Below, piece by piece: positions 5,681-62,558 of a DNA stretch of 64,000 nt. This DNA is from an uncultured Methanomassiliicoccales archaeon (GTDB lineage Archaea > Thermoplasmatota > Thermoplasmata > Methanomassiliicoccales > Methanomethylophilaceae): contig CAKUXX010000006.1 of the NCBI GenBank assembly GCA_934702355.1, forward strand, positions 73,776 to 137,775, given 5' to 3'. Under the pieces are notes generated by a model. That model was given only the letters and a program-made list of their open reading frames with translations, had not been told where the DNA came from and made no database searches. The stretch's first letter is position 1. Every line of letters begins with the position of its first letter. Position numbers and translations under genes: made by a program.

Positions 5681-6352
5681 TCAGTTTTCGTCCGAAAGTG
5701 TTCCGTGGGCACAGGAATCCATCAAAGTATCCAATATCCTGCAGCCTTCCGGATCGAGGTCGTCGAGCACTATGATGCTTCCGTGTCTGAGGATGGACAC
5801 GGACGCTATCGACATCGCGTACTCCCCAGACCACGAACGTGTCATGACAGGATTCTTCGCAAGCGGGATGTCATGCTCCGAGGCGAGTCTGCTCAGGTCG
5901 GTGTTGATCTCCAGGCAGGATTTCATGTTCCTGATCGCAGGATTCAGTATGATGTCGGAAACCCCTGCAGATGCTGCGGATTCTGCGTTGTCCATCAGGT
6001 CCTGAACATCGATACCAGGCACGGCCAGAGGGTTCCCGAATATCGATGACAGCATGGATGCCTCCGATAGGATGGATGCATCCGCCGGGCAGAGGATGGC
6101 TTCGGGATACATCTGAGAAACGGCTCTGAGGCAGATCGGATCGGATGATTCGGACACAATTTTGAATCCGACCGCAGAGGCGATGGATACCGCGGCTGCG
6201 AACATCTCCGGGTCGAAGGAATCGTTCCTCACGCATATGTGGTCAAGATGGGGGCAGGATGAGCGCAGGTTGTTGAGTGCGGAGACGCGTTCGAGGATCA
6301 TGTTCGCCGGAAGGGCATCCGATACGCTCAATGCAATGAATTGTCCGCTCAT
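5681..6352 (-). CDS. CdhE/CdhD-like TIM-barrel protein (corrinoid Fe-S protein subunit-like, no cluster or corrinoid domain)
   Basis: 223 aa. Segments DIILNPAIRNM..SRLASEHDIPLAKNPVM..ASVSILRHGSIIVL resemble the barrel of the acetyl-CoA decarbonylase/synthase gamma/delta subunits. The stop of the upstream gene is 9 nt away. Confidence 0.45.
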   Translation of the reverse strand: MSGQFIALSVSDALPANMILERVSALNNLRSSCPHLDHICVRNDSFDPEMFAAAVSIASAVGFKIVSESSDPICLRAVSQMYPEAILCPADASILSEASMLSSIFGNPLAVPGIDVQDLMDNAESAASAGVSDIILNPAIRNMKSCLEINTDLSRLASEHDIPLAKNPVMTRSWSGEYAMSIASVSILRHGSIIVLDDLDPEGCRILDTLMDSCAHGTLSDEN

Positions 6353-6361
6353 GGTTCTACC

Positions 6362-7174
6362 TCACAGGTCTGCAAGCTCCTCGCCGTATACGCGTGCCAT
6401 ATCGGCCGCGCCGGGACCTCTCATGATTATTATGTCCGTTCCGGAGAGCATCGCGGACAATGCGGCCTCCGCCTCCCACATGGATGCCTCGCGTGCGTCG
6501 CGGAATCCGCGTTCCCAGCACTTCATCGTGCTCGCCATGGTGGGGTGTCTCAGACCGTGTTCTTCCGACAGGGCCCTCGAGCGCACCTCCTCGGCACGCT
6601 TTATGGAATCCTCCAGTTCTGGTCCGACGTCGAATCCCCCTAGATCGAGGATCATCTTCCCGCAACCGGATGATTCGACGGCCTCGGCACCCGATGAAAG
6701 CGAATCGGCATCACCGCCGAAGACGCACACAGCATGGTCTCCCGCATCTCCGTCGTACGTGCCGTCGCGTCCGATGAGTATCATCGTGGAATCACGGATG
6801 CCCGAAAGTTCGAAAAGGGTCTCGGGATCTGATGTCACGGCCACAGGGAGTCTTGTCCTGGAGACTATCCTCTCCACAAGCGACGTGTCCCCGTCGTTGA
6901 GATCGATCCAAATGCCGTCGGCACCGATCTCCTTCCACATCACGGCCCATTCTTCGGGGTCGTCCTGTCTTCCGGAGAACATCTCTCTCAGCAGTTCGGG
7001 GTAGGATTCCGGTCTGTCGGACACCTCTCCGAATATCAGGGGCCTCCTGCGGCGCGCATCGTCCAGATCGAGGAACGGAAGGCTCCACGAGCCTCCGGCC
7101 ACGTAATCCCCTTTTCCGAGGATCAGCTCGCCGAGTTGGGTGCAGCGCCCGCGTGAAGTTTTCGGAAGCCTCAT
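6362..7174 (-). CDS. CdhD-like protein (CODH/ACS delta-subunit-like TIM barrel)
   Basis: 270 aa. LPFLDLD..RRPLIFGEVSD, WKEIGADGIWIDL, KMILDLGGFDVGPELEDS and WEAEAALSAMLSGTDIIIMRGPGAA are colinear with the CdhD-family pattern as I remember it. Confidence 0.5.
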   Translation of the reverse strand: MRLPKTSRGRCTQLGELILGKGDYVAGGSWSLPFLDLDDARRRRPLIFGEVSDRPESYPELLREMFSGRQDDPEEWAVMWKEIGADGIWIDLNDGDTSLVERIVSRTRLPVAVTSDPETLFELSGIRDSTMILIGRDGTYDGDAGDHAVCVFGGDADSLSSGAEAVESSGCGKMILDLGGFDVGPELEDSIKRAEEVRSRALSEEHGLRHPTMASTMKCWERGFRDAREASMWEAEAALSAMLSGTDIIIMRGPGAADMARVYGEELADL

Positions 7175-17210: not shown

Positions 17211-17331
17211 GGATGTAAGGTGTTTTTGGATCCATGTCACAATGGATCCATCTTGGTTCCAGGCTTCGTTCGGTCACGGATTCATACGAGGATGACCAGA
17301 AGATCAAGTCTGGGAAATCTGATGAATTCTC

Positions 17332-18225
17332 TCAGAGTCCATAACGCTCAGGATTTTCCAACGGCACACCGTTAGAATACATTGCAAATCCGCCTATACA
17401 TGCGATGATCGTCTGTGAATCCTCGTATGTTCCCTTGTACCACAGATATACGAACACATGGGTCTGTCCGTTCTTCATCGATTTCGTCTGGGCATATCTC
17501 GCCGCATCACTATACGAATTGAATTTCTCGTTTATTCTGGCCTGGTATTGGTGTACCTCTTTCACATCCCCCTTTACATCAACCTTCGCAATAGTTCTAT
17601 AATTATCATCTCTGACTTTCATCTCCCCGATTTTCTCTCTGGATGTCGTGGTGTATGATTCTTCATACGTGCCTCCGACCATATATTCTGCGTACCTACG
17701 TCCTCTCTGCCCACTGAGGAATTCATTTTTTACCTTTTCAACGGAGCTGATGTCCCACAACGGCACCTCGATATTGATTGATTTAAATGCACCGCCACTA
17801 TAACTCAAACTGTTCTCGATACAGATTTTCTTGATCTCCTCGATCACTTCCGACCTTTCTTTTTGTGCAAGATCAGATTTTTGTTTGTCCATCTTCGTTC
17901 TCTGATCACCCCCGATACAACCATTGATCAAACACACGATACAAAAACCGAAGATGATTATCAAGGGTATTCTGTTATCCGGACTGTAGACATAGCCCAA
18001 TATACACACTACGATACCTATTGTGGACAACAATCCACTGAAGAATCCATGACGTGTAAACATCAAACCGAATGTTGCCCATATGGGTATCACAATGGTT
18101 ATTATGTCCATCAATAAATCGTCGGTTACTAATACCAGAATTAGAGAACTCAATACCGCGAGAGCAACCGCGATAATATCGAGCATACGCTGATTCTTTG
18201 ATTTCTCTTCCATTTTCACATTCAT
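17332..18225 (-). CDS. Hypothetical membrane protein in a low-GC islet
   Basis: ATG at 18225 is preceded by GGAGGAG. About 4 TM helices are followed by a soluble C-terminal domain. The gene is visibly AT-richer than its neighbours. Confidence 0.6.
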   Translation of the reverse strand: MNVKMEEKSKNQRMLDIIAVALAVLSSLILVLVTDDLLMDIITIVIPIWATFGLMFTRHGFFSGLLSTIGIVVCILGYVYSPDNRIPLIIIFGFCIVCLINGCIGGDQRTKMDKQKSDLAQKERSEVIEEIKKICIENSLSYSGGAFKSINIEVPLWDISSVEKVKNEFLSGQRGRRYAEYMVGGTYEESYTTTSREKIGEMKVRDDNYRTIAKVDVKGDVKEVHQYQARINEKFNSYSDAARYAQTKSMKNGQTHVFVYLWYKGTYEDSQTIIACIGGFAMYSNGVPLENPERYGL

Positions 18226-18487
18226 TTTCACTCCTCCGTGAATGGGGATGAATATGACGAATGGCACGGCCACCCGAGTAGCCTCTCTCCAGATCAATCG
18301 GGATCCTTCGTCAACAATCCCCATTCCGGAGTCAGAAGGACAAGTGTGGAACCTTCCTCCCGAACCCCGGAGACAGGTCCCTTTCATCATGAAACGGCGG
18401 CCGAAGAATGTTCGACCCCCCCCCCTTGCATCACGAGAGGGGAGGGCATAACGCTTCCCTGCCCTGAAACATAAATCTTAATTCTTT

Positions 18488-18888
18488 ATATCTTTATCCT
18501 AAGTTGGATGGGTCGCAGAGCCATTCGCCCATCTTGGAATACACTTGAGTAGTTGAATCATGTTTGGAAGAGGTTTCCTTCATGCATTTCGCTCCGATGA
18601 TGACTTGAGTACGTCAGCATCCTTTCGGATTACCCATAGGGCTATCCTGGGCATTGCCCCAGGCATTCGCTTCTTACTCTTTCCTACACCCTCTGGGCCG
18701 TTTCTGCTCCTCACGGAGCCGATACCGCTTCGCGGAGTCCATAGGGGTTATCCTGTCCACTTTCGAGGAGGATCGGGCGGTTTAGGTGCCGTCTTTGACC
18801 CGGGATTATCCATCTGTCCGCCGTTCAGCTCTCCAGCTTCACGGCCTGAATCCGTACATCCGGCAGTCCCGGTCCAGGATCAGATATC
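18488..18888 (-). ncRNA. rnpB: Probable RNase P RNA (archaeal type A-like)
   Basis: No credible ORF in about 400 nt. On the minus strand the termini pair (GATATCTGATCCT with AGGATAAAGATAT). CGAAAGTGGAC and ATCCAACTT form a P4-like pairing. GGAGCAGAAACGGCC, GGGTGTAGGAAAGAGTAAGAAGCG and CAAGATGGGCGAATGGCTCTGCGAC resemble the conserved CR blocks. Boundaries are approximate. Confidence 0.5.
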
Positions 18889-18918
18889 GAAAAAGGAGAG
18901 AAGGGCCCCGGAGGGCCC
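18889..18918 (-). terminator. Hairpin plus T5 run after dapL
   Basis: GGGCCC-TCCG-GGGCCC followed by TTCTCTCCTTTTTC on the minus strand, 13 nt after the dapL stop. Confidence 0.5.
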
Positions 18919-18930
18919 AAGATAAAAGTT

Positions 18931-30282: not shown

Positions 30283-31584
30283 ATGTACTGTATGAAGTGC
30301 GGTTCTCTTATGGAGCCCGGAGCGAATTTCTGCACGGCATGCGGAGCGAGGGCGTTCGACAGCGAGGCCCCCGAACGCGAATTCCTGGGAATTTATTCTT
30401 CCGAAGGGCCGATCCCGGAGGCGAAGCCCCGGAGCGAAGGATTCGGCCGCAGCGCGAAGAGGTTCGCCGTCATGTCCCTGGCGGTCATGCTCCTTGTGCT
30501 GGTCATAGCATCGTCGTTCACTCCGCCCGCAGAGGACACTCCGGAGCGCAGCTACACGCTGGGAAGCATAACGGTCTACGGCGATCTCTATTCGGATGAC
30601 ATAATCGTCCTGGATTCGCCGCGTGCCACGATGACATACACAGGCGAAGGCGGGGACATCTACTGGAAGTACAAGACACTGTCCGACACGGCCCTGGTCT
30701 ACGACAAGATGACGGACAAGTACGTGTCGCGCGGTTACGATCTGTATTCGGGTTCCTCGTTGACATTCACCGAACCGGGCAACTACGAAGTCGCACTGAT
30801 CTCCGACGGCAAGACCCTCCATCTCGGAAGGGTGGTGCTGGACGGGACCGTGACCACCAACTACGAGTGGAAGCAGGTCCTCGACCGCAAGATCTACACA
30901 TACTCATTCCAGTTCTCATACGAGTTCTCTGATTACTACAAGTACGCCACGATGGACAACGTCGTCCGCCATTACAATGAATATCGTGACGACAACCGTT
31001 TCGTCGTCGTGGACGATACGATCCTCTCCCTGGAAGAGGCCCTTTCCGACGAGTACAAGCGCGTACGCGGATCGGGTGCATCCCTGAACGGCCATGATTA
31101 TGCGGATTATCTCCTGTCGTTCGTCCAATGCAACATCAGCTACCCGACCATGGTATCTCCGGGGCCGTTCAAGCAATACTATCTGGATAACAAGAACGGG
31201 GTCGGCGACTACTTCCTCAACGGTGTCGAGGAATACTGGGCGTTCCCTATGGAGACGCTGTACCTGGGGATGGGCGACTGCGAGGACACATCGTTCCTCA
31301 CATGCGCACTGTTCTCTGCCGCAGGCTACAGGTCCGCATTGATATCAATCCCGAGCCACATGCTCTCCGCAGTCTCGGTCGATTCGCTTGCCAGCAATCC
31401 GAGTCCGTCGTATTACGCATCCGCGCCTCTCAAGCTGAAGGACGGCACCGTCATGTACTGCTGCGAGACGACATACAACGGCGCGGTCCCCGTGGGATAT
31501 TACAACAAGAGCAATTATTCCGCGATCATGAGCGTCACCACTGTGGATGTCGTGGAGCCCTATGAAAGGGGGCAGACCTACTGA
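30283..31584 (+). CDS. Zinc-ribbon / single-TM / transglutaminase-like (Cys protease fold) protein
   Basis: MYCMKCGSLMEPGANFCTACG, a TM helix (AVMSLAVMLLVLVIA), then an extracytoplasmic domain ending in YWAFPMETLYLGMGDCEDTSF..IPSHMLS. GGAGGTG lies 8 nt before ATG 30283. Confidence 0.7.
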   Translation: MYCMKCGSLMEPGANFCTACGARAFDSEAPEREFLGIYSSEGPIPEAKPRSEGFGRSAKRFAVMSLAVMLLVLVIASSFTPPAEDTPERSYTLGSITVYGDLYSDDIIVLDSPRATMTYTGEGGDIYWKYKTLSDTALVYDKMTDKYVSRGYDLYSGSSLTFTEPGNYEVALISDGKTLHLGRVVLDGTVTTNYEWKQVLDRKIYTYSFQFSYEFSDYYKYATMDNVVRHYNEYRDDNRFVVVDDTILSLEEALSDEYKRVRGSGASLNGHDYADYLLSFVQCNISYPTMVSPGPFKQYYLDNKNGVGDYFLNGVEEYWAFPMETLYLGMGDCEDTSFLTCALFSAAGYRSALISIPSHMLSAVSVDSLASNPSPSYYASAPLKLKDGTVMYCCETTYNGAVPVGYYNKSNYSAIMSVTTVDVVEPYERGQTY

Positions 31585-32744
31585 GCAAGGGCACCGCGGC
31601 CTGCATCGCACTGGCGTTGGTGCTGGTTTCCGCGGTGTTCGTTGGATTGCATTTTTCCAATGGAAATGGAGGGGGGTTGGATGAGTCCGGGGATAATCCG
31701 GTCATGGTCTTCGACTCCCTTCCGGATGGGATAACGGCGGATTACGACAATCTGTCCCTGATCTCCCCTGAGGCTGTGACGTGGACCGTGTTCGACGAGC
31801 TCCACATGTATTACAACACCAGTCAATACGGCAGCTTCACCGAAAGGTACACAGGTACCACTTACACGGGAGAGGTGCTCAGTCTGAAGCCGGGGATGTA
31901 CAGCATCACAGTGGGGGATTCCAAGTTCCTCGCAACCGTCTACGGACAGGTCGATCTCGAGAAGAGCTGGACATACAACCTCGACGGGAAGAATGTGAAT
32001 GCGTCCATATCGTACAGCATCCCGGTCTCGGAGCTGGTGTCCGAGTTCGCTTATGCGGACAGGCTGAACATGAATGACAATGCCCCCACTCCCAAATACC
32101 GCAGCGATTGCGTCTTCAAGGTCAGCACTTCGTATTCGTTCTCCGATCTGCCCAAGCTCGTGCGCATAGGCGATGTCGTATCCATGGTCGGAGACCGTCT
32201 GGTATAGGAGTATGTTCGCATCGGAGGCGACAGGACGGACAGCCAAGGCCTATTGGATTTCGTCGCGGGATTCATCCAGAAGGGGATACGCTATCCATCC
32301 ACGATATCCGACCGTTCATTCGACTACGGTATCCACGGAAGCGACGAGTACTGGGCAGTTCCCGTCCAGACGCTGTACCATCAGTACGGCGACTGCGAGG
32401 ACGATTCCGCATTGTTCTGCTCGTTGGCATCCTATCTCGGATTCGATGTCGCCATGGGCGGAAAGGCAGGACATGTGTTCGCAGGAGTGGTGTTGGAAGA
32501 TTTCACCGAGGTGTCGGAGCAGCGTCTGAGGGACCTCGGCGTCGGATACATGCGTCACATCAACGGAACGGACATCGAAGGGACATCGGGCAAGACATAT
32601 CAGGCCGTGGAGCTGATCAAAGGGCAGGCCCCGGTCGGCTATTCGATGAGCATCGATTTCGGTTCCAACACGCTGTGGGGGATCACGGGATTCTATCCGG
32701 CCGACCCTCAGGGAGAGGTGCTCGGGATCCACTCGCCCTCGTAA
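31562..32744 (+). pseudogene. Paralog of the preceding transglutaminase-like gene, interrupted by an in-frame TAG (32205-32207) and probably a 5' frameshift
   Basis: ORFs 31617-32207 and 32253-32744 share a frame and are separated only by TAG. The read-through product is colinear with 30283-31584. ATG 31562 is out of frame by one nt across a G5 run (31568-31572). The TAG could instead be decoded (see findings). Confidence 0.5.
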
Positions 32745-33541
32745 ACGGGCGCATCCGAGATCTCAATCCCATCACCGACGTCCAGGACCATGAGGTCTCT
32801 GCCGGCGATCGTCCTCACACCCGTTGCCTTCTCCACCATCGCGGCCTCGTTCTCGGGCCCGCGCCTAATAATGACCACTCCCAGGTGGATGAATATCGCA
32901 AGCTCGGGCCTGACCTTCTCGACGAAGGTGATCGCATCATCCGTGCACAGGTGGTACTTGATGCGGTTGCCCATGGGCGTGGTGACGGGGAGTATGAGCA
33001 CCCTGGACCCGACATACTGCTCCGCGATCTCGTCGGAATACGAGGTGTCGCTGACATACGAGACGATCCCGTGATCCGTATGGAACTTGAATCCTACATT
33101 GGTGGGGTCGCTGTGGTCCGCTTTGCAGATGTCCACCTTCATGCCGTCGACGTCCAGGACATCCCCCGGCTTGAACTCGGTCACAGAGGACAGGATGCGA
33201 AGGTGATAATCGGATATGCAGGGTCCCAATCCCCTCTCGCCGCTGATGACGGTCTTCGAACCATACAGTGAACCTTTCTTCACCCATCCCCCGCGGGTCA
33301 TGCCCTCGATCACGGATTCCGCATCCGAGTAATGGTCGGGGTGGCAGTGGGATACGATGAGCGACTCGGTCCTGGTGAGGTCGTACCTTATGCGGTGCAT
33401 CTGCACGAGCGCTCCGGGCCCCGGGTCCACATGGAGGAACCTTCCGTCATGTTCTATGAGCATACCGCCCGTCGAACGGACCTGATACATTGTGGTGTGA
33501 CGTCCGCCGCCGGTCCCTAGGAATGTTATACGGAAGCTCAT
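32708..33541 (-). CDS. MBL-fold metallo-hydrolase
   Basis: MSFRITFLGTGGG.., and SHCHPDHY as the HxHxDH motif. ATG at 33541. Confidence 0.8.
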   Translation of the reverse strand: MSFRITFLGTGGGRHTTMYQVRSTGGMLIEHDGRFLHVDPGPGALVQMHRIRYDLTRTESLIVSHCHPDHYSDAESVIEGMTRGGWVKKGSLYGSKTVISGERGLGPCISDYHLRILSSVTEFKPGDVLDVDGMKVDICKADHSDPTNVGFKFHTDHGIVSYVSDTSYSDEIAEQYVGSRVLILPVTTPMGNRIKYHLCTDDAITFVEKVRPELAIFIHLGVVIIRRGPENEAAMVEKATGVRTIAGRDLMVLDVGDGIEISDAPVYEGEWIPSTSP

Positions 33542-33700
33542 GGTCCCGTGAACGACGATGCCGTATATCCCAATTGTGAACACCGTTCCGAACAGTCCGC
33601 ACCATCAACAGAAGTGCGGACCTTCGGCGCATCCGCAAAGCCTCGGTATGCGGAAGGGGCCGTACCAACGCTTATCACCTCCTGGTAGAATCGGGGGGCC

Positions 33701-38861: not shown

Positions 38862-39423
38862 TTTCAGGGCGGCTATGGGGGAGGATGCTATAAGAGGTGC
38901 GTTCGGCCGAGACTGTTCTCCCTTGTTTCAAGCGGTCATTTTGCACAAAATGGGTGAATTCCATCATTTTTGCTCCCCGATCTTGTATCCTGTCAGTCCT
39001 TAGTTTGAAATTCCGCTAATTTTTTCCATTTTATCAAAGTAAGGAGAAACGGTTCAAGGAGTGTACGACCCTTGAAACGTCGATTTTTCAGACATATAGG
39101 TTGCAGAGAGTATGCTCAGTTTTTACTTCGATGACGTCAAAATGGAACTGGGTACTACTGTAGCGATATGAAATCGTCGTTATTGCATAGGGTATGAATC
39201 CAGGTCAGCCTAGTTGTGGGGGTAGAACTGGGGGAGGTAGAGTACTGTTGAAAAGTTCTAGCATCACATAACAATGCAGTATGTCGCAGGTAGCGACGGA
39301 TGCATTCCTGAATGGATCCTCGGCTTCTGTTCAAGATGCCAATTTGGAATCTTGAATATTCTTCACCCGCAGCTGAAAACAGAATATGGGTGGTAGATGG
39401 GATTGTTACGCGCCATTACCAAA

Positions 39424-39470
39424 TGGCATAAGAAATGGCATAAGAAGTGGCATAAGAAGTGGCAGTGAAG
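39424..39470. repeat. 12-nt tandem repeat TGGCATAAGAA(A/G), 3 full units plus a partial
   Basis: Units at 39424-39435, 39436-39447 and 39448-39459, plus a degenerate TGGCAGTGAAG. Related copies: GGATAAGAATGG (39643-39654) and GGTATAAGAATGA (40311-40323). Confidence 0.8.
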
Positions 39471-39651
39471 TTGAGATTACGCCAATCGTCAGCAATTATC
39501 TTTTTCCGATTTTTCGAAACAGTAATGTCAATCATCCCAAAAACTTGTAAAGGATGCTTCAGAGACCCTTTTTTCATGCTCCGCAAAGGGGTGTAATTCC
39601 AATAATCCGATAAATCGTAAGTGGCATTCCGCCGAGAAGTATGGATAAGAA

Positions 39652-39672
39652 TGGTCCTTCCTCCCTGATTTG
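39652..39672. repeat. Imperfect direct copy of the 3' end of tRNA-Tyr (att-like)
   Basis: TGGTCCTTCCTCCCTGATTTG versus TGGTCCCCACTCCCTGATTTG at 40333-40353 (18 of 21 identical). Both are preceded by an ATAAGAATG motif. Confidence 0.6.
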
Positions 39673-40353
39673 CTACTTGGCATTTTTGTCAATTCAATCA
39701 CCCAATCCGACTCTGCGCCGTAATTACGAGGATGGAGACTCGCATTATATGGATGTCATCAGAGAGAAGATATCCATTGCCCGTAAGGATTGATGGCCAC
39801 CCTTGGCAGCCGAGCTTACGGGTCTTATCAGGATACTTTTCGGTTGTTCATCAAACTATTTAAATGGTCCTACCAACCGATTCAATATTCGTTGTATGTT
39901 GGGACTTTGAATCTACTTGAGGATATGGCCACTGTCCAAATTACAAGCAGGATTAAAATCGACGGGAGAAGACACCCCTTCCGAAACCGCTTTGTAAATT
40001 GCTTTCTCGGTCCATTTTGTGGATTCGCCAAGGGCAAGACTGTATACGTCTTCAGGATTGAATCTGTTTATGTCGCAATCTTTTTCAGACTGTTCATACG
40101 ACGAAGGATCCGACCGATATACAAACAGATCGAGAGATGGGGAACGGATGGGAGGGGCTGTACCGATCAGATGCGGCACTCCCAGCTAATACGTTCAAAG
40201 GGAAAACGTGTTACTTCAGAAGAATGTACAAATGTGTCGATTTTAAGGTACTGACGCCATTGATGGCAATCGATGGGGCGCCTATAAGGTTTAAATTCAG
40301 AAATAAACCAGGTATAAGAATGAAGAAGGTAGTGGTCCCCACTCCCTGATTTG
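39652..40353. mobile_element. Possible relic of an element integrated at tRNA-Tyr (no intact genes)
   Basis: Segment bounded by the tRNA 3' end and its degenerate copy. It is AT-rich and contains only short, stop-ridden ORF fragments. Confidence 0.3.
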
Positions 40354-40444
40354 AACAGGGGACCTGCTGATTTCAGCGGCTGCATCGGTTTCTTCCGAAA
40401 ACACTCTACAGTCAGCCGCTCTGGCCAGTCTGAGCTAAGTGGGG
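40333..40444 (-). tRNA. tRNA-Tyr (anticodon GUA) with 34-nt intron at 37/38; CCA encoded
   Basis: Acceptor stem CCCCACT/AGTGGGG (C1-G72), D arm GCTC..GAGC, anticodon stem GCTGA/TCAGC with loop CTGTAG|intron|A, T arm CCCTG-TTCAAAT-CAGGG, discriminator A plus CCA. Confidence 0.85.
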
Positions 40445-40467
40445 ATTAATTTTGGGGATATCGACCA

Positions 40468-40478
40468 TTTATTTAAAT
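40468..40478 (-). promoter_or_regulatory. Candidate TATA box for tRNA-Tyr
   Basis: ATTTAAATAAA on the minus strand, centred about 27 nt upstream of the tRNA 5' end. Confidence 0.5.
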
Positions 40479-40500
40479 CTACTTGTAAGCAGAAAGTGAT

Positions 40501-51474: not shown

Positions 51475-54400
51475 TCAGTGGGCCCTCTCGATGGCCTGGA
51501 CGATCCTGGCGATCTCCTTCTCGGGATCCTTCCACATTCCGGGGGTCCAGACCCTGTGTATCTTCCATCCTCTGGATTCGAGGTATTTCTGCCTGTGATA
51601 GTCCCTCTCCCTTGTGGAGGACGACATCTCGTACAGCCTGCTGTCGCATTCGATCCCGAGGATGTACTTGTCGTTCTGCTTGACCGCCAGGTCGATCTGG
51701 TATCCTCCGATTCCGACATTCCTCTCGACGGTGTATCCCTTGCGCGTGAGGGCGTTGAACACCCTGTCTGCGATGCGTCCGGAGTCGAACTCCTCGGCGG
51801 TCTTCCAGCGGTCGTCGCCGAAGGAATGGAGTATGGAATCCGCAAGGTCCCTGTTCCCTCTGCTGACGGCGTTCGCATACTGGAGGTATCTCTTCAGAAT
51901 CCTGGGGCCCTCGTTCTTGGTCTCCTCGACCTGGAGGTCCTCCGGATCGAAGGATGTGACGATGAAGATCTTCTTCTTGGCCCTGGAGATGGCGACGTTG
52001 AGACGGTTCTCTCCGCCGCGGTTGTTGAGCCATCCGAACCTCTGCATCAGCCTGCCCTCGGCATTCTTGGCGTATCCGACGGAGAATATGATGACATCCC
52101 TCTCGTCTCCCTGGACGCTCTCGATGTTCTTGATGAACAGACCGACATCCTCTCCGTTGTCGAACCTCTTGGATTCGTCCGCGACCATCTTCCCGAATCC
52201 GGGATCGTTGGCGCATTCCTCATCGATCACATCGTTGATGAGGTCCCTCTGGGACGCATTGAACGTGATTATGCCGACGGTCTCGTTGTTCTTCCTGTGT
52301 ATGAAGAACTCTTTCAGGATCGACAGGATCTTCTGGGCCTCGGCGCGGTTGGACTTATCCTCCCACATTCCGTTTACCTTGAACACCTCTATCGGAGGCC
52401 TCTCGGGCTCCTCGACATTGGGGGAGACGTACAGTCTTCCGCCGTAGAACGCGTAGTTGGAGAATGCTATCAGCTCCTCGTACTTGGAACGGTAGTGGAA
52501 GTTCAGCAGGATGGAGTCGTATCTCGCGCGGGCCAGGTCCAGGAGACTCTCCTCCTCGAGGGCCGCGGACACGATGTCCTCCTCGTCATCCTCGTCGCTG
52601 TCGTACTCGATCCTTCCGACTCCCAGCGAGGACGGGCGCAGCTGCTTGTGGTCGCCTGCGACGACGACCTTCTTCGCCCTGTAGATCGACGGTATGCCCT
52701 TCTCGACATACATCTGCGACGCCTCGTCGAAGATCAGCATGTCGAATATGCCCATCTCCAGCGGGAGGATCTCCGATACGACTTCGGGGGTGAGCAGCCA
52801 GACGCGGACACCTTTGAACAGTTCGTATCCGTACCTGGAGACGAACTTGTTGATGTTCCACTTCCTCTTGGATTCTATGATTCTGTTGATGTCCCCGCGC
52901 CTCTTGGACTCGGTGATGTACTTCAGGTTCTCCCTGAACACGTCCTCGGCCTTCTCCTTGGACATGTTCCTCTTGAGCTCGATCCTGCGGTCCATGTCCG
53001 CGATGATGCTCTCGAAATCCCAGATCTCCTGCATGATGTCCTTGTGTGCGGCGTCGAACTTCTGCAGGTGGTCGTTCAGGATCCAGGTGTACATCCTGTC
53101 GTTGGAATCCGGATAGGACATCTTCGTGGCGGAGGAGATGTTCAGGACATCGCCGACGTACGTGCGCTCGTCCGGGGAGAGTCTGCTGTACACGGTGGCC
53201 CTGGACGAGTATGTTCCGTATCCGTCCAGGGCGTTGAACATCCCCTTGGGGTCGGACATGATCTTGTCGACGGTGTGCTTGTTGTAGTTGTCGAAGTATT
53301 TCCCGGTGAGTGCGGTGGCCTCGCGCTCGACCTTACCTTTGTTGAACAGCCTTCCTAGGAATCCCTTGGAGTTGAGCTCGCTGATCTGCTTGTCCAGGTC
53401 GAGGAGGTTGGCCCTCATCTCGCCTATGTCGAACTCCGACAGGTCGGATCTCATCTGCGTCATCCACGGGTTCTGCTCGGTCAGCTGCTTGTACTCGTTG
53501 ACGTTCCTCATCAGGGTCTGGTCGCCGAACTTCCTGTGGAGTTCGGTGACGTCCTTGTACCTGAGTGCGAGGACGGACGCATCTATGCATGCCTTCAGCG
53601 TGCGGTACTCCTCTATCTGACGGCCGTCGTTGGGGTCCAGCCATCTGTCCATGGAGTACAGCTTGTACGGCTCTATGCCGAATTCGCAGGGGCTGTACAT
53701 CGTCTTGGCGATGTTGTCGAGGATGGAGACATCCTTGTCGATGCCCTCGGACACGGCATCCAGATCAACGGTGCCTTTGGGCTCCCCGGAGTCAAGCATC
53801 CTTGCCAGCTGTTTGTAGAAAAGCTCCTTGTTACCCACGTCGTCGATCAGCAGGCAGTACTTGGACAGCGTGCCCATACGGGAGTAGACGACATCCAGCG
53901 CGGTCTTCTTCTCGGATACCATCAGGACGGTCTTCCCTTTGATGACAGCGGATGTTATCAGTCCGGTTATGACCTGGGATTTCCCGGTCCCCGGAGGTCC
54001 CTGGACGACGATCTCGTCGCCCTTGTCCATGGCGGTGAGGATGTTCTCCTGCGAGCTGTTGAGCGAATTGATGTAGACCAGGTCCTTCTCGGATGCCGTC
54101 AGACCCTTGCTCTCGAGCTCGCGCTCGGAGAGCGGGGCAGGGGAATCCGACAGGAAATCACTCTTGTTGAGGTCCACGATGAGATCGTTCAGGATCCCGT
54201 TGATCTCACGTCCGGCCAGCATCCCGTCGAAGTCCTTCTGGATGGAACTTGAGTATGTGGGGTACTTCCCGACCATGATGTTGGGGACCATCTCCATGTC
54301 CCCTGCCAGGTACTTGGGGAACTCCCCCGCCTTGTATTCCACGAAAGGCACAGGCAGGCTGTAGTTCGTGATCAGCTTGATACCGTTCTGCTCGTAGAAC

Positions 54401-55197
54401 TCGACCAGGTTCGTCAGGAAGTTCTCCCCGGTGTAGTCTTCGATGATGTTGTCCGGGAGCGGCCTGTTCTGGCCGAGGGATTTGATGAACCCGAGGATCA
54501 GGGTGTTGTTGTAGATGGCATCTCTGGAATTGTCTAGGGAGAGGGAGATCGTCCTGGAGTCCTTCTCCATGATGACCGGGAACAGCGCCAGCGGGGCACG
54601 GACATCGATATCGTTGTCAGGCATCTTCCCCTGGACGAACGGGTATGCGATGTACAGGTCGTACTGACCCTTGTCCCTCTGCTCGCGAGAAACCTCACGG
54701 ATGATCTCGTTGAGATGCCTGTACACCTTGGCGGCCTCCGTGCTCTTGGCGGAGTCGCACAGCTTGAGGACCCTCTTCCTTCCGAAGAGGAGGCCCATGA
54801 CGTCCACATCGGGCAGCGTCATGAGGTCGAAAGCGTTCTTCCTGGAGATCTTGGGTTGGAATATCAGGCGGTTCCCTTTGCTGATGTTGATGAGCTTCTT
54901 CTCGAGCTCCCTGAGGGTCTGGGCGGAATCCGCATCGATCGATCCGCCGTTGGCCGCCGTGATGGCATATTTCCGGGTGACGCTGAGGAAATCCTCTCCG
55001 TACAGATCGACGAACCTGTCCCCGACGCCGACGATCGCCGTGAAATCCTCTGTCTTGGTGGGAACGCGCTGGGCCATCTCCCTTAGGGCCTCGTCCGGGC
55101 AGACGACGGGTATGCGTCCGCTGGACATCCTGCGTTCCTCCCTTATGCTTTCCCTGAGTGCATACAGTTCCTCGTAGAGGTCATCTTCCAATCCCAT
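51475..55197 (-). CDS. Large SF1 (Upf1-like) helicase with N-terminal HRDC-like domain and C-terminal Vsr/DUF559-like endonuclease domain
   Basis: 1240 aa. The HRDC-like N-terminus is LYALRESIREE..VVCPDEALREMAQRVPTKTEDF. A DUF4011-like region follows. Walker A is VVQGPPGTGKSQV, Walker B is LIFDEASQM, and the AAA_12-like segment is VTSFDPED/LNVAISRAKKK. The C-terminus GYTVERNVGIGGYQIDLAV..LGIECDS..RDYHRQKYLESRGWKIHRVW has a restriction-endonuclease-like fold. Confidence 0.85.
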   Translation of the reverse strand: MGLEDDLYEELYALRESIREERRMSSGRIPVVCPDEALREMAQRVPTKTEDFTAIVGVGDRFVDLYGEDFLSVTRKYAITAANGGSIDADSAQTLRELEKKLINISKGNRLIFQPKISRKNAFDLMTLPDVDVMGLLFGRKRVLKLCDSAKSTEAAKVYRHLNEIIREVSREQRDKGQYDLYIAYPFVQGKMPDNDIDVRAPLALFPVIMEKDSRTISLSLDNSRDAIYNNTLILGFIKSLGQNRPLPDNIIEDYTGENFLTNLVEFYEQNGIKLITNYSLPVPFVEYKAGEFPKYLAGDMEMVPNIMVGKYPTYSSSIQKDFDGMLAGREINGILNDLIVDLNKSDFLSDSPAPLSERELESKGLTASEKDLVYINSLNSSQENILTAMDKGDEIVVQGPPGTGKSQVITGLITSAVIKGKTVLMVSEKKTALDVVYSRMGTLSKYCLLIDDVGNKELFYKQLARMLDSGEPKGTVDLDAVSEGIDKDVSILDNIAKTMYSPCEFGIEPYKLYSMDRWLDPNDGRQIEEYRTLKACIDASVLALRYKDVTELHRKFGDQTLMRNVNEYKQLTEQNPWMTQMRSDLSEFDIGEMRANLLDLDKQISELNSKGFLGRLFNKGKVEREATALTGKYFDNYNKHTVDKIMSDPKGMFNALDGYGTYSSRATVYSRLSPDERTYVGDVLNISSATKMSYPDSNDRMYTWILNDHLQKFDAAHKDIMQEIWDFESIIADMDRRIELKRNMSKEKAEDVFRENLKYITESKRRGDINRIIESKRKWNINKFVSRYGYELFKGVRVWLLTPEVVSEILPLEMGIFDMLIFDEASQMYVEKGIPSIYRAKKVVVAGDHKQLRPSSLGVGRIEYDSDEDDEEDIVSAALEEESLLDLARARYDSILLNFHYRSKYEELIAFSNYAFYGGRLYVSPNVEEPERPPIEVFKVNGMWEDKSNRAEAQKILSILKEFFIHRKNNETVGIITFNASQRDLINDVIDEECANDPGFGKMVADESKRFDNGEDVGLFIKNIESVQGDERDVIIFSVGYAKNAEGRLMQRFGWLNNRGGENRLNVAISRAKKKIFIVTSFDPEDLQVEETKNEGPRILKRYLQYANAVSRGNRDLADSILHSFGDDRWKTAEEFDSGRIADRVFNALTRKGYTVERNVGIGGYQIDLAVKQNDKYILGIECDSRLYEMSSSTRERDYHRQKYLESRGWKIHRVWTPGMWKDPEKEIARIVQAIERAH

Positions 55198-61174: not shown

Positions 61175-61238
61175 ATCCGGCGGGATGTAGAATGATAATA
61201 TAGTGTTATGTCCGGCCCGAAGGCCGGTAAGGGGTTGG

Positions 61239-62558
61239 TCACTTCCTGACGGTGAGTTTCTGGACGAATCTGTTCTGTCCGAGCCCTGTGATGAGGATGT
61301 CCGACCTGTAAAGCCAAACGGTCACGATTATCGTCGCCAGGGCGAACACTGCCATGTAGGCGATACCGGAGAGCACGAGCATGACATCCCCGTACATCAG
61401 GGCCTGCATGGCCATCATCGGGTGGGAGAACGGGATTGCGAAGGTGATGGCCTTCACGACAGCGGCGCTGCCGTACCATCCGGAGAACATGATGATGAAC
61501 ATCGGGACGAGTCCCATTATGCTCAGGGGCATGGTCATGGTCTGTGCGGATTTGTAGTTCTTCGCGAACGCTCCGAGGATCATGCATATTCCGAGTGCGC
61601 AGATGATGGCGAGGAACATGGAGATCATGATCAGGAACCAGTCCGTGCCGCTCAGGGACATGCCTATGTCGGCGAGATTGACCGAACCTGTCTCGATCTT
61701 GCCGGTCATGCCGTTGGTGTAGACGCTCATGCCGACCATGTACGCCAATCCGTACACGAGTCCGACGATGGCCGAGGCGAGGATCTTCCCGCTGACGATG
61801 GTGGTCCTCTTCACAGGCAGCGTCAGCAGCGTCTCGAGGGTCTTGTTCTCCTTCTCGGAGCCCATGGAGCTGATGACTATGCTTCCGACCATCATTATGA
61901 TGATCATGATCACGACAGGGATCATCATGGTCTGACTTGTCACCTCGTTGGCGATGGCGTAGGGTGTGACGCCCTGATACGCCGTTCCCTTGACGACGGT
62001 GCTGATGTCGTTCGAACCGGTGATCAGCGGGCTCGTCATGAAATCGTAGTCTGCGGAAGGCTCCTGGGCTATCATGACCCTGGAAAGACTGGAATTGAGC
62101 ATGTCGACGACGGTCGTGATGATCGTCGATGGGGCGGAACCGAACAGGCCGATGGGCTCGTAGACGTAGTATTGCATCACGGAGACCTGTTTGTGGAGCC
62201 TGAGGTCGTCGTACAATGTGTCTGGTATGCCTATCACGGCGTCTATGTCCTTGTCGCGCATCTCGGCGACTATGGCATCCAGGTCCCCGTAGTTGCTGTC
62301 CATGGGGATGATCTTGGATGCGGCCTCGTCCCCGTACATCTCCTTGAGCTGATAGTATGCGTTCCATTCGAGGTAGTCTCCGTCGTCGGTGGGTCCGACG
62401 TATCCGAACGATGGGAGCACAGATGCCTTCTCGACCTCGTGACCCATCATACCGCCCATTCCGGCGAGCAGGACGACCATTATGAGCACGGATATCACGG
62501 AACCGGGGGTGAGCATCTCCTTTAGTTCCTTGCGCATGATGTTGGTGAGATGGCTCAT
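61239..62558 (-). CDS. ABC-2 type transporter permease
   Basis: ATG at 62558 (MSHLTNIMRKELKEM..). An N-terminal TM helix and a large extracytoplasmic loop are followed by 5 TM helices. ATGA overlap with the ATPase gene. Confidence 0.8.
   Translation of the reverse strand: MSHLTNIMRKELKEMLTPGSVISVLIMVVLLAGMGGMMGHEVEKASVLPSFGYVGPTDDGDYLEWNAYYQLKEMYGDEAASKIIPMDSNYGDLDAIVAEMRDKDIDAVIGIPDTLYDDLRLHKQVSVMQYYVYEPIGLFGSAPSTIITTVVDMLNSSLSRVMIAQEPSADYDFMTSPLITGSNDISTVVKGTAYQGVTPYAIANEVTSQTMMIPVVIMIIIMMVGSIVISSMGSEKENKTLETLLTLPVKRTTIVSGKILASAIVGLVYGLAYMVGMSVYTNGMTGKIETGSVNLADIGMSLSGTDWFLIMISMFLAIICALGICMILGAFAKNYKSAQTMTMPLSIMGLVPMFIIMFSGWYGSAAVVKAITFAIPFSHPMMAMQALMYGDVMLVLSGIAYMAVFALATIIVTVWLYRSDILITGLGQNRFVQKLTVRK

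Follow-up and report, generated by a model that had tools for sequence, protein, structure and literature searches.

In an uncultured archaeon of the Methanomassiliicoccales (family Methanomethylophilaceae), a gene for a putative membrane-anchored protein with a transglutaminase-like core contains an in-frame amber codon. We consider it quite probable that this TAG is a new, lineage-specific sense codon in a methanogen that decodes pyrrolysine (Pyl), and that the gene yields a full-length protein of 387 amino acids with Pyl at residue 209. The gene lies within a stretch of 64,000 nucleotides (assembly GCA_934702355.1, contig CAKUXX010000006.1, positions 73,776 to 137,775 of the forward strand), which we call the window and whose numbering is used throughout. 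Read through, its coding sequence extends on the + strand from a CTG codon at 31581 to a TAA terminator at 32742–32744 (31581–32744, 387 codons), with the amber codon, at 32205–32207 on the same strand, as codon 209. Understood in this way, the target is neither a broken gene nor a new mechanism; it is an ordinary case of a genetic-code variant that has already been described.

The interruption was noticed by inspection of the sequence alone, and that original prediction, which placed two open reading frames (ORFs; 31617–32207 and 32253–32744) in one frame with the TAG at 32205–32207 as the sole stop separating them, was correct in all its coordinates. The next in-frame stop is the TAA, 179 codons further on. 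The read-through product had also been described as colinear with an intact neighbor, and this is borne out: the upstream paralog, a full-length protein of 433 amino acids (30283–31584, + strand; TGA at 31582–31584), gives a single BLASTP alignment that spans the TAG (28% identity, 247 columns, E = 3e-19) and pairs the TAG position, written as X, with an Asp. The layout of this paralog comprises a zinc ribbon (Pfam match to Zn_Ribbon_1), a transmembrane segment, a beta domain and a transglutaminase-like, Cys-protease-like core. In the target, the coding signal is kept on both sides of the TAG and in that frame only, with a GC content at third codon positions of 0.73, and the Cys-protease-like block (GDCED) is found downstream of the TAG, again as first described. 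The extent given here for the coding sequence rests on this frame signal, on full-length orthologs of 355–396 amino acids and on an AlphaFold model of a 96% relative; the predicted order of elements in the product is an N-terminal membrane anchor, a beta-sandwich domain, a helical segment and a transglutaminase-fold core. Scanned separately against Pfam, the two halves gave no match at E < 0.01, and under code-11 annotation the target is split into two 'hypothetical proteins' of 176 and 163 amino acids in every public assembly of the lineage. When the window was scanned for TAGs with same-frame coding-quality sequence on both sides, the target was returned and no other credible case was found.

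A search of 5.8 billion proteins yielded 35 homologs, nearly all of them uninterrupted and 355–396 amino acids long. Both target halves align to single full-length proteins (96% to P0001; 53–55% to P0002–P0007 over 94–96% of the query). TAG, or any other stop, was found at the amber column in none of about 40 orthologs, neither in the 35 homologs nor in six full-length variants of the 90%-identity cluster that also holds both half-products of the window; in these six the residue is Glu in five and Asp in one. Across the whole set the column is variable, with D, E, A, S, R, K or M, and it directly precedes an invariant Glu and a conserved R-x-G-G-D motif, adjoining the conserved motifs without lying inside them. 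The alignment of orthologs proposed with the original prediction therefore gives a sense codon at this column in all of about 40 sequences, and the TAG is not conserved.

The closest relatives allow the event to be polarized. The nearest sampled relatives of the TAG lineage, at 93–95% nucleotide identity, keep a sense codon, and the codons around the site read GTA TAG GAG in the window, GTA GAG GAG in L086, GTC GAG GAG in L087 and GTT GAT GAG in L001. Since sister lineages carry GAG, the TAG is one G>T transversion away from an ancestral Glu codon; it arose by that single change, recently and in one lineage. The identical TAG allele is present in 10 contigs from 10 samples belonging to several projects, Hadza gut metagenomes among them. 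Compared over up to 3.5 kb, the contigs share at least 99.9% identity, with 2 variable sites in all. Different assemblers stand behind them, as the contig names indicate (MEGAHIT-style k141 names, SPAdes NODE names, Logan). The TAG is fixed in a young, near-clonal and widely dispersed human-gut lineage. Around the amber column itself, 10 of 15 consecutive codons differ between the window (32175–32217) and L001 (625–667), mostly synonymously, against about 5% divergence elsewhere; this cluster of differences could be a small recombination tract or a local mutational hotspot.

Patterns of substitution were compared over the two halves of the gene. Between the window and L001, 41 codons differ synonymously and 13 non-synonymously. 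Differences between lineages over the distal half amount to 14–27 synonymous versus 2–7 non-synonymous, and among the ORFs of the TAG-free lineages the corresponding counts per half are 14–33 versus 2–22. By these counts the ORFs of L001, L086 and L087 are under purifying selection. On the private branch of the TAG lineage, the distal half has 4 synonymous changes and no non-synonymous ones, whereas the proximal half has 4 and 2, respectively.

Among the matches listed, the best of which is 54% identical, homologs of the target come from Methanomassiliicoccales and Methanomethylophilaceae metagenome-assembled genomes (MAGs), plus a few contigs under bacterial bins; this distribution places the organism at the level of order or family. 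The latter (L006, L007, L008, L014 and L016) are filed, in one 'cleanbin' MAG study, as Lachnospiraceae, Firmicutes CAG:194, Dialister hominis and Bifidobacteriaceae; they carry the archaeal gene pair and are probably mis-binned or mislabeled archaeal contigs. The window encodes archaeal RadA and TyrRS, and the flank past its end encodes a large HdrA-like protein and a FlpD/MvhD-type protein, as expected for a methanogen.

Pyrrolysine machinery was found in association with this clade. The search for pylT, pylS and pylBCD that the original prediction had called for led to a full cassette on contigs that co-occur with the clade. As query for PylRS we used the M. alvus sequence, which a database entry matched at 100%. 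One PylRS, P0172, is 66% identical to the M. alvus protein and is present in seven places, five of which it shares with the clade: ERR7738273, ERZ28614417, ERZ15610042 and ERZ4561784, which hold the TAG lineage, and SRR31228035, which holds a sister lineage. Coverage of the P0172 contigs agrees with that of the clade contigs (3.06 against 3.01 in the Hadza sample; 8.25 against 8.8–10.3 in ERZ15610042), as does GC content (57.4%, versus 56.7% for the window), and the control PylRS sequences P0124, P0220 and P0233 have no sample in common with the clade. The order of genes on the P0172 contigs (L121–L126) is mtmB with its canonical in-frame TAG, pylT, pylS, pylB, pylC and pylD; PylSc, PylB, PylC and PylD all score above the NCBIfam cut-offs. 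Directly upstream of pylS lies a 68-nt tRNA-Pyl with a CUA anticodon (L121 1852–1919; L122 2909–2976; L123 283–350; also on L124, L125 and L126). It matches 62 of 68 bases of the M. alvus tRNA-Pyl sequence, with compensatory changes in the acceptor stem. In a separate MAG, CAYUPU01, an ortholog of the target (L013) and pylS-pylC-pylD (L112) occur together. The clade thus very probably carries a complete pyl cassette, and we infer that this cassette is in the same genome as the window. ARAGORN and Rfam scans of the window detected tRNA-Leu only; because ARAGORN misses the pylT visible on L121–L125, a negative tRNA scan is no evidence for absence of pylT in this order.

Stop-codon usage was examined on genes called anew and checked with Pfam and NCBIfam. 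Of about 61 genes in the window, about 58 end in TGA, 2–3 in TAA and none in TAG, in agreement with the earlier observation, on 67 called coding sequences, that none terminates with TAG. Adding 20 kb of flanks of the same lineage (L098 and L101) brings the total to 84 kb, about 5% of a genome, and about 76 genes, with about 72 TGA, about 4 TAA and 0 TAG. The bias is extreme, at about 95% TGA, 5% TAA and 0% TAG, and the share of TAA is far below the 17% given for 'Ca. M. alvus'. One ORF that ends in TAG (61203–62525) is spurious, being antisense to an ABC-2 permease gene identified by Pfam. Our codon-usage score, which had yielded this ORF, is unreliable on membrane proteins and in low-GC islands.

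At the 5′ end of the target, the original prediction had proposed damage in the form of a frameshift at a run of five G residues (31568–31572), with an ATG at 31562 as the only ATG start. Both elements exist, and the frameshift does not. The sequence AGGGGG at 31567–31572 (+ strand), which holds the run, encodes the Arg-Gly of the paralog C-terminus, and C-termini are colinear across loci (..EPYERGQTY* in the window, ..QPYERTTA* in L007 and ..QPYARTTE* in L006). The ATG at 31562 is an out-of-frame triplet lying across paralog Tyr-Glu codons (TAT GAA). The run is identical in L001, L086 and L087, which are free of the TAG and intact, and divergence among the four lineages that have it reaches 7%; the reading frame calls for no deletion. 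AGGGGG resembles a Shine–Dalgarno sequence and stands 8 nt upstream of the homologous start, and in most orthologs GGAGG or GAGGA precedes the start codon by 7–9 nt.

The position of the ancestral start is occupied by a CTG (31581–31583, + strand) that overlaps the paralog stop (cTGA) and is a candidate near-cognate or re-initiation start. In close orthologs the start likewise overlaps the paralog TGA, as ATGA in L006 and L007 (product MSKA...) and as TTGA in L008 ((M)NRAL...). The two codons that follow the CTG, AGC AAG, encode S-K and match the ortholog N-terminus. Every lineage of the clade has CTGA (the window, L001, L086 and L087), and three of the four are without the TAG; as the CTG is kept in TAG-free lineages that are under purifying selection, this unusual start position is old and can be reconciled with function. 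Its conservation suggests a near-cognate or termination-reinitiation start, or else a start moved to GTG 31620. TTG 31677 is a further alternative, and TTG 31617 is CTG in L087 and hence no conserved start. Over the 12 codons from CTG 31581 to GTG 31620, variation is even across codon positions (3, 3 and 3), with five replacements, all conservative; the 57 nt after the GTG 31620 stretch are invariant. We looked for further lesions in the target copy and found no frameshift, no other in-frame stop and no start loss private to the TAG copy. Of two marks of a plain pseudogene that had been named with the original prediction, a sense codon in orthologs and further disabling mutations in this copy, the first was found and the second was not.

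The nature of the protein was assessed by profile and structure comparison. An AlphaFold model of P0001 (predicted local distance difference score, pLDDT, 89.7; predicted template modeling score, pTM, 0.89) has an all-beta domain at residues 9–116, followed by helices and an alpha/beta core; the amber column corresponds in it to residue 177, close to the C-terminus of helix 166–181. The Cys of GDCED (codon 32394–32396, + strand; residue 272 counted from the CTG) is the putative catalytic Cys: it is invariant in 32–36 members, starts a helix in the model and, in the match to the LapG-type protease 4u65 (E = 2.5e-4), falls on the catalytic-Cys motif of that protease. The His of GHVFAG (codon 32472–32474, + strand; residue 298) is also invariant and is predicted to lie on a beta-strand after the Cys helix, and the Glu of AVE (codon 32610–32612, + strand; residue 344), in a column at least 90% conserved, is the putative third residue of the triad. 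The order of Cys, strand and His in the model would be that of transglutaminase-fold enzymes, with the Glu as a likely triad member; all three residues lie downstream of the TAG.

Matches to named families were low. The window copy scores 12.5 bits against PF01841 (Transglut_core), for which the cut-off is 23. In the family as a whole, profile matches were obtained to PF01841 in 18 of 36 members (best E = 0.0054), to C93 in 10 of 36 and to the CEP76 peptidase-like profile in 31 of 36 (best E = 2.5e-4), and none of the 36 reaches the curated gathering threshold of any of the three. The top Foldseek matches in the PDB are all of the transglutaminase fold (3kd4, 4xz7, 3isr, PNGase and Rad4), at E of 1.6e-3 or higher and whole-chain template modeling scores of 0.25 or lower. 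These searches point consistently, if weakly, to the fold of transglutaminase-like or bacterial transglutaminase-like cysteine proteases (BTLCP). The target resembles transglutaminase-like and papain-fold proteases (PF01841; Peptidase_C93, as in LapG, PDB 4u65 and 4fgo; PF24656) in the pattern EYW..P..TL...GDCED, with a Cys at a helix start, a His and a near-invariant Glu; it differs in its own N-terminal anchor and beta-sandwich domain and in scoring below curated thresholds, and the likeness is one of fold and motif. The description 'transglutaminase-like' in the original prediction accordingly stands at that level and not as family membership.

The course of events that we propose begins with a Pyl-tRNA(CUA) that the organism would carry to serve its methylamine methyltransferases. 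In one young lineage of a species-level clade, a single G>T change converted the Glu codon GAG to TAG at residue 209, and, given a full Pyl system in the clade, this mutation would most probably act as a missense change to pyrrolysine. The ribosome would insert Pyl at the TAG and go on for 179 codons to the TAA, the catalytic half included. Because the site is near the end of a helix and the variable column suggests tolerance of the bulky residue, replacement of Glu by Pyl would probably be neutral or nearly so, and would have been fixed by drift or hitch-hiking. We infer that the TAG is decoded in this way and that the Pyl-containing protein is functional. Seen in none of about 40 orthologs, the target TAG is no conserved Pyl site, nor one that function requires. 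No PYLIS-like (pyrrolysine insertion sequence) RNA structure was found downstream of the TAG, with z scores of −0.59 (TAG allele) and −0.04 (GAG allele), as would be expected if decoding does not depend on context. We used the 'Category 1' tests of a published preprint, namely a read-through extension of more than 15 amino acids without a large out-of-frame overlap and at least two Pyl-specific hidden Markov models (HMMs); read-through at the target creates no large out-of-frame overlap, the 37-nt convergent overlap at its 3′ end being the only one and found in uninterrupted orthologs too. The two alternatives set out in the original prediction, a Pyl site or a recent nonsense mutation, both hold in effect: the GAG>TAG change is recent and is probably read as Pyl.

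Several observations weigh against this proposal. No Pyl genes are present in the window or in 20 kb of flanks, and what ties the cassette to the genome is co-occurrence, coverage and GC content, as opposed to physical linkage or a closed genome. The pylB gene of the linked cassette stops at TAG (L121 3830–3832; also on L123 and L126), at its natural C-terminus (HMM positions 5–346 of 347); read-through there would add 20 codons and overlap the pylC start. Either PylB may have a Pyl-containing tail, or TAG may still terminate, at least partly, in the clade. TAA is rare too, so that zero TAG in 76 genes is only moderately informative (P about 0.02–0.05 if TAG were as frequent as TAA). The start codon of the target is non-canonical, and expression may be low in any case. 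Finally, the TAG population is near-clonal, with 2 variable sites in 3.5 kb, and post-TAG dN/dS (the ratio of non-synonymous to synonymous rates) therefore carries almost no power; the 4:0 count of the distal half could wholly pre-date the TAG.

Some of these observations would also suit a recent nonsense mutation, in which a release factor stops at the TAG always or mostly, leaving a fragment of about 208 amino acids with the anchor and beta-sandwich, and in which the distal half is a young pseudogene. We regard this as unlikely. It would agree with a TAG that is derived, lineage-specific and very young, in a fast-evolving family where the tandem paralog could buffer a loss, with the CTG at the homologous start, which suggests weak expression, and with the apparent end of pylB at TAG; the release factor aRF1, which every Pyl archaeon has, may be a competitor of Pyl-tRNA (bioRxiv 10.1101/2024.09.30.615893). 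Against truncation, a complete pyl cassette is very probable for the clade, TAG ends none of about 76 genes, and in the related M. alvi all TAG positions within reach of proteomics carried Pyl (Kivenson et al. 2024, bioRxiv 10.1101/2024.09.30.615893). The target copy has no second lesion, its distal half shows 4 synonymous and 0 non-synonymous changes on its own branch, and the allele is fixed and spread over many hosts.

A different possibility is that the amber codon is selected, either because Pyl209 is beneficial or because synthesis of the catalytic half is tied to the supply of Pyl-tRNA and thus to methylamine availability. We hold this to be very improbable. In its favor, several human cohorts harbor the lineage in which the allele is fixed, and the TAG lies just upstream of the catalytic domain, so that the proportions of anchor-only and full-length product would depend on how efficiently it is read through. 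The TAG is, however, conserved in no ortholog or sister lineage, has no RNA structure downstream (z = −0.59) and occupies a variable column beside conserved motifs rather than within them; fixation in a near-clonal lineage is what drift or hitch-hiking gives, and the preprint reports no enrichment of such sites over random mutation (bioRxiv 10.1101/2024.09.30.615893). One form of this idea, to which we attach equally slight weight, is a natural switch: during growth on methylamines Pyl-tRNA would be abundant and the full-length protein made, under scarcity only the anchored beta-sandwich fragment would appear, and re-initiation at the CTG would throttle output. If true, such a switch would be substrate-coupled control of protein architecture by a recoded stop codon. 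That the TAG, the G-run or both stem from an error of sequencing or assembly has a negligible chance of being right: homopolymer and single-base errors do occur in metagenome assemblies, and the original prediction had raised this for the G5 run, but error at the TAG is ruled out by its presence in ten independently assembled contigs from different assemblers, and the G5 run is identical in four lineages differing by up to 7%.

Decoding of the target TAG as Pyl has close parallels. In 'Ca. M. alvus', TAG makes up 1.6% of stops, 16 putative Pyl proteins have been listed, and a new in-frame amber codon was argued to be a stable mutation (Borrel et al. 2014, PMC4153887). More recently, Genetic Code 34 was proposed, with nearly all non-methyltransferase Pyl sites described as singletons that are perhaps neutral, as in Thg1 (bioRxiv 10.1101/2024.09.30.615893). 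The target is like these Code 34 singletons (Category 1; 'Ca. Methanomethylophilus alvus') in several ways: homologous sequence flanks its internal TAG, read-through adds a long extension, the host is a gut member of the Methanomassiliicoccales with a probable pyl cassette and almost no TAG terminators, and the site is confined to one lineage where homologs have an ordinary residue. It differs in gene and in species, its PylRS being just 66% identical to that of M. alvus, and neither Table 7 of Borrel et al. (2014) nor the main text of the preprint names its product. For the target, moreover, the ancestral codon (GAG) and the sister alleles are known and the event is polarized.

Two other comparisons place the target within the range of known amber codons. 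The methyltransferases MtmB, MtbB and MttB use the same codon and the same decoding machinery, and mtmB with its TAG adjoins pylT and pylS in the linked cassette; in these enzymes, however, the TAG is conserved across orders and Pyl is catalytic, whereas the target TAG is found in no ortholog and lies outside the conserved motifs. For the tRNA-His guanylyltransferase Thg1 of Methanosarcina acetivorans, Pyl incorporation and its dispensability have reportedly been shown by experiment, and neutral evolution was the interpretation (Heinemann et al. 2009, as cited in Borrel et al. 2014 and in the preprint). Like the target, Thg1 is no methyltransferase and has a lineage-specific in-frame TAG where the residue is not essential, read because the machinery is present; incorporation and dispensability are experimental findings there and are proposed here.

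Other features of the window are noted for completeness. Convergent with the target is a metallo-beta-lactamase-fold gene (32708–33583, − strand; Pfam Lactamase_B_2), whose 3′ end overlaps that of the target by the 37 nt mentioned above. This arrangement is common to all related loci, including those with uninterrupted orthologs, and the gene is context only, with no part in the mechanism; precomputed Pfam matches of its product include Anti-Pycsar_Apyc1 (PF23023). Two low-GC islands, at 38862–40500 and 17211–18930, have a GC content of 42–50% versus 57% overall, and neither gave an Rfam match. The first has no gene in public calls and no confident ORF, and contains a 12-nt tandem repeat, AAATGGCATAAG, in about 4 copies at 39421–39464; the second has only poorly scoring ORFs with no Pfam match. 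On the − strand, 51475–55197 encodes a helicase-like protein of 1240 amino acids whose partial matches to ProA and Hhe, both anti-phage proteins (DUF4011, AAA_11/AAA_12), are strong, at scores below equivalog cut-offs. Two adjacent genes on that strand, 5681–6352 and 6362–7174 (223 and 270 amino acids), both match Pfam CdhD (PF03599, precomputed). The gap between them is 9 nt, and TGA is the stop of the upstream member; they could be tandem genes or one gene interrupted by a TGA.

The target, probably read through as Pyl, is a new instance, in another gene and another species, of a phenomenon already on record; it bears out the published picture without adding to it, and shows no new mechanism. 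In annotating genomes of this clade, TAG should be treated as a sense codon. Near-identical gut strains that have Glu or, as we propose, Pyl at one residue would form a polarized pair for testing the neutrality model of the spread of Code 34.

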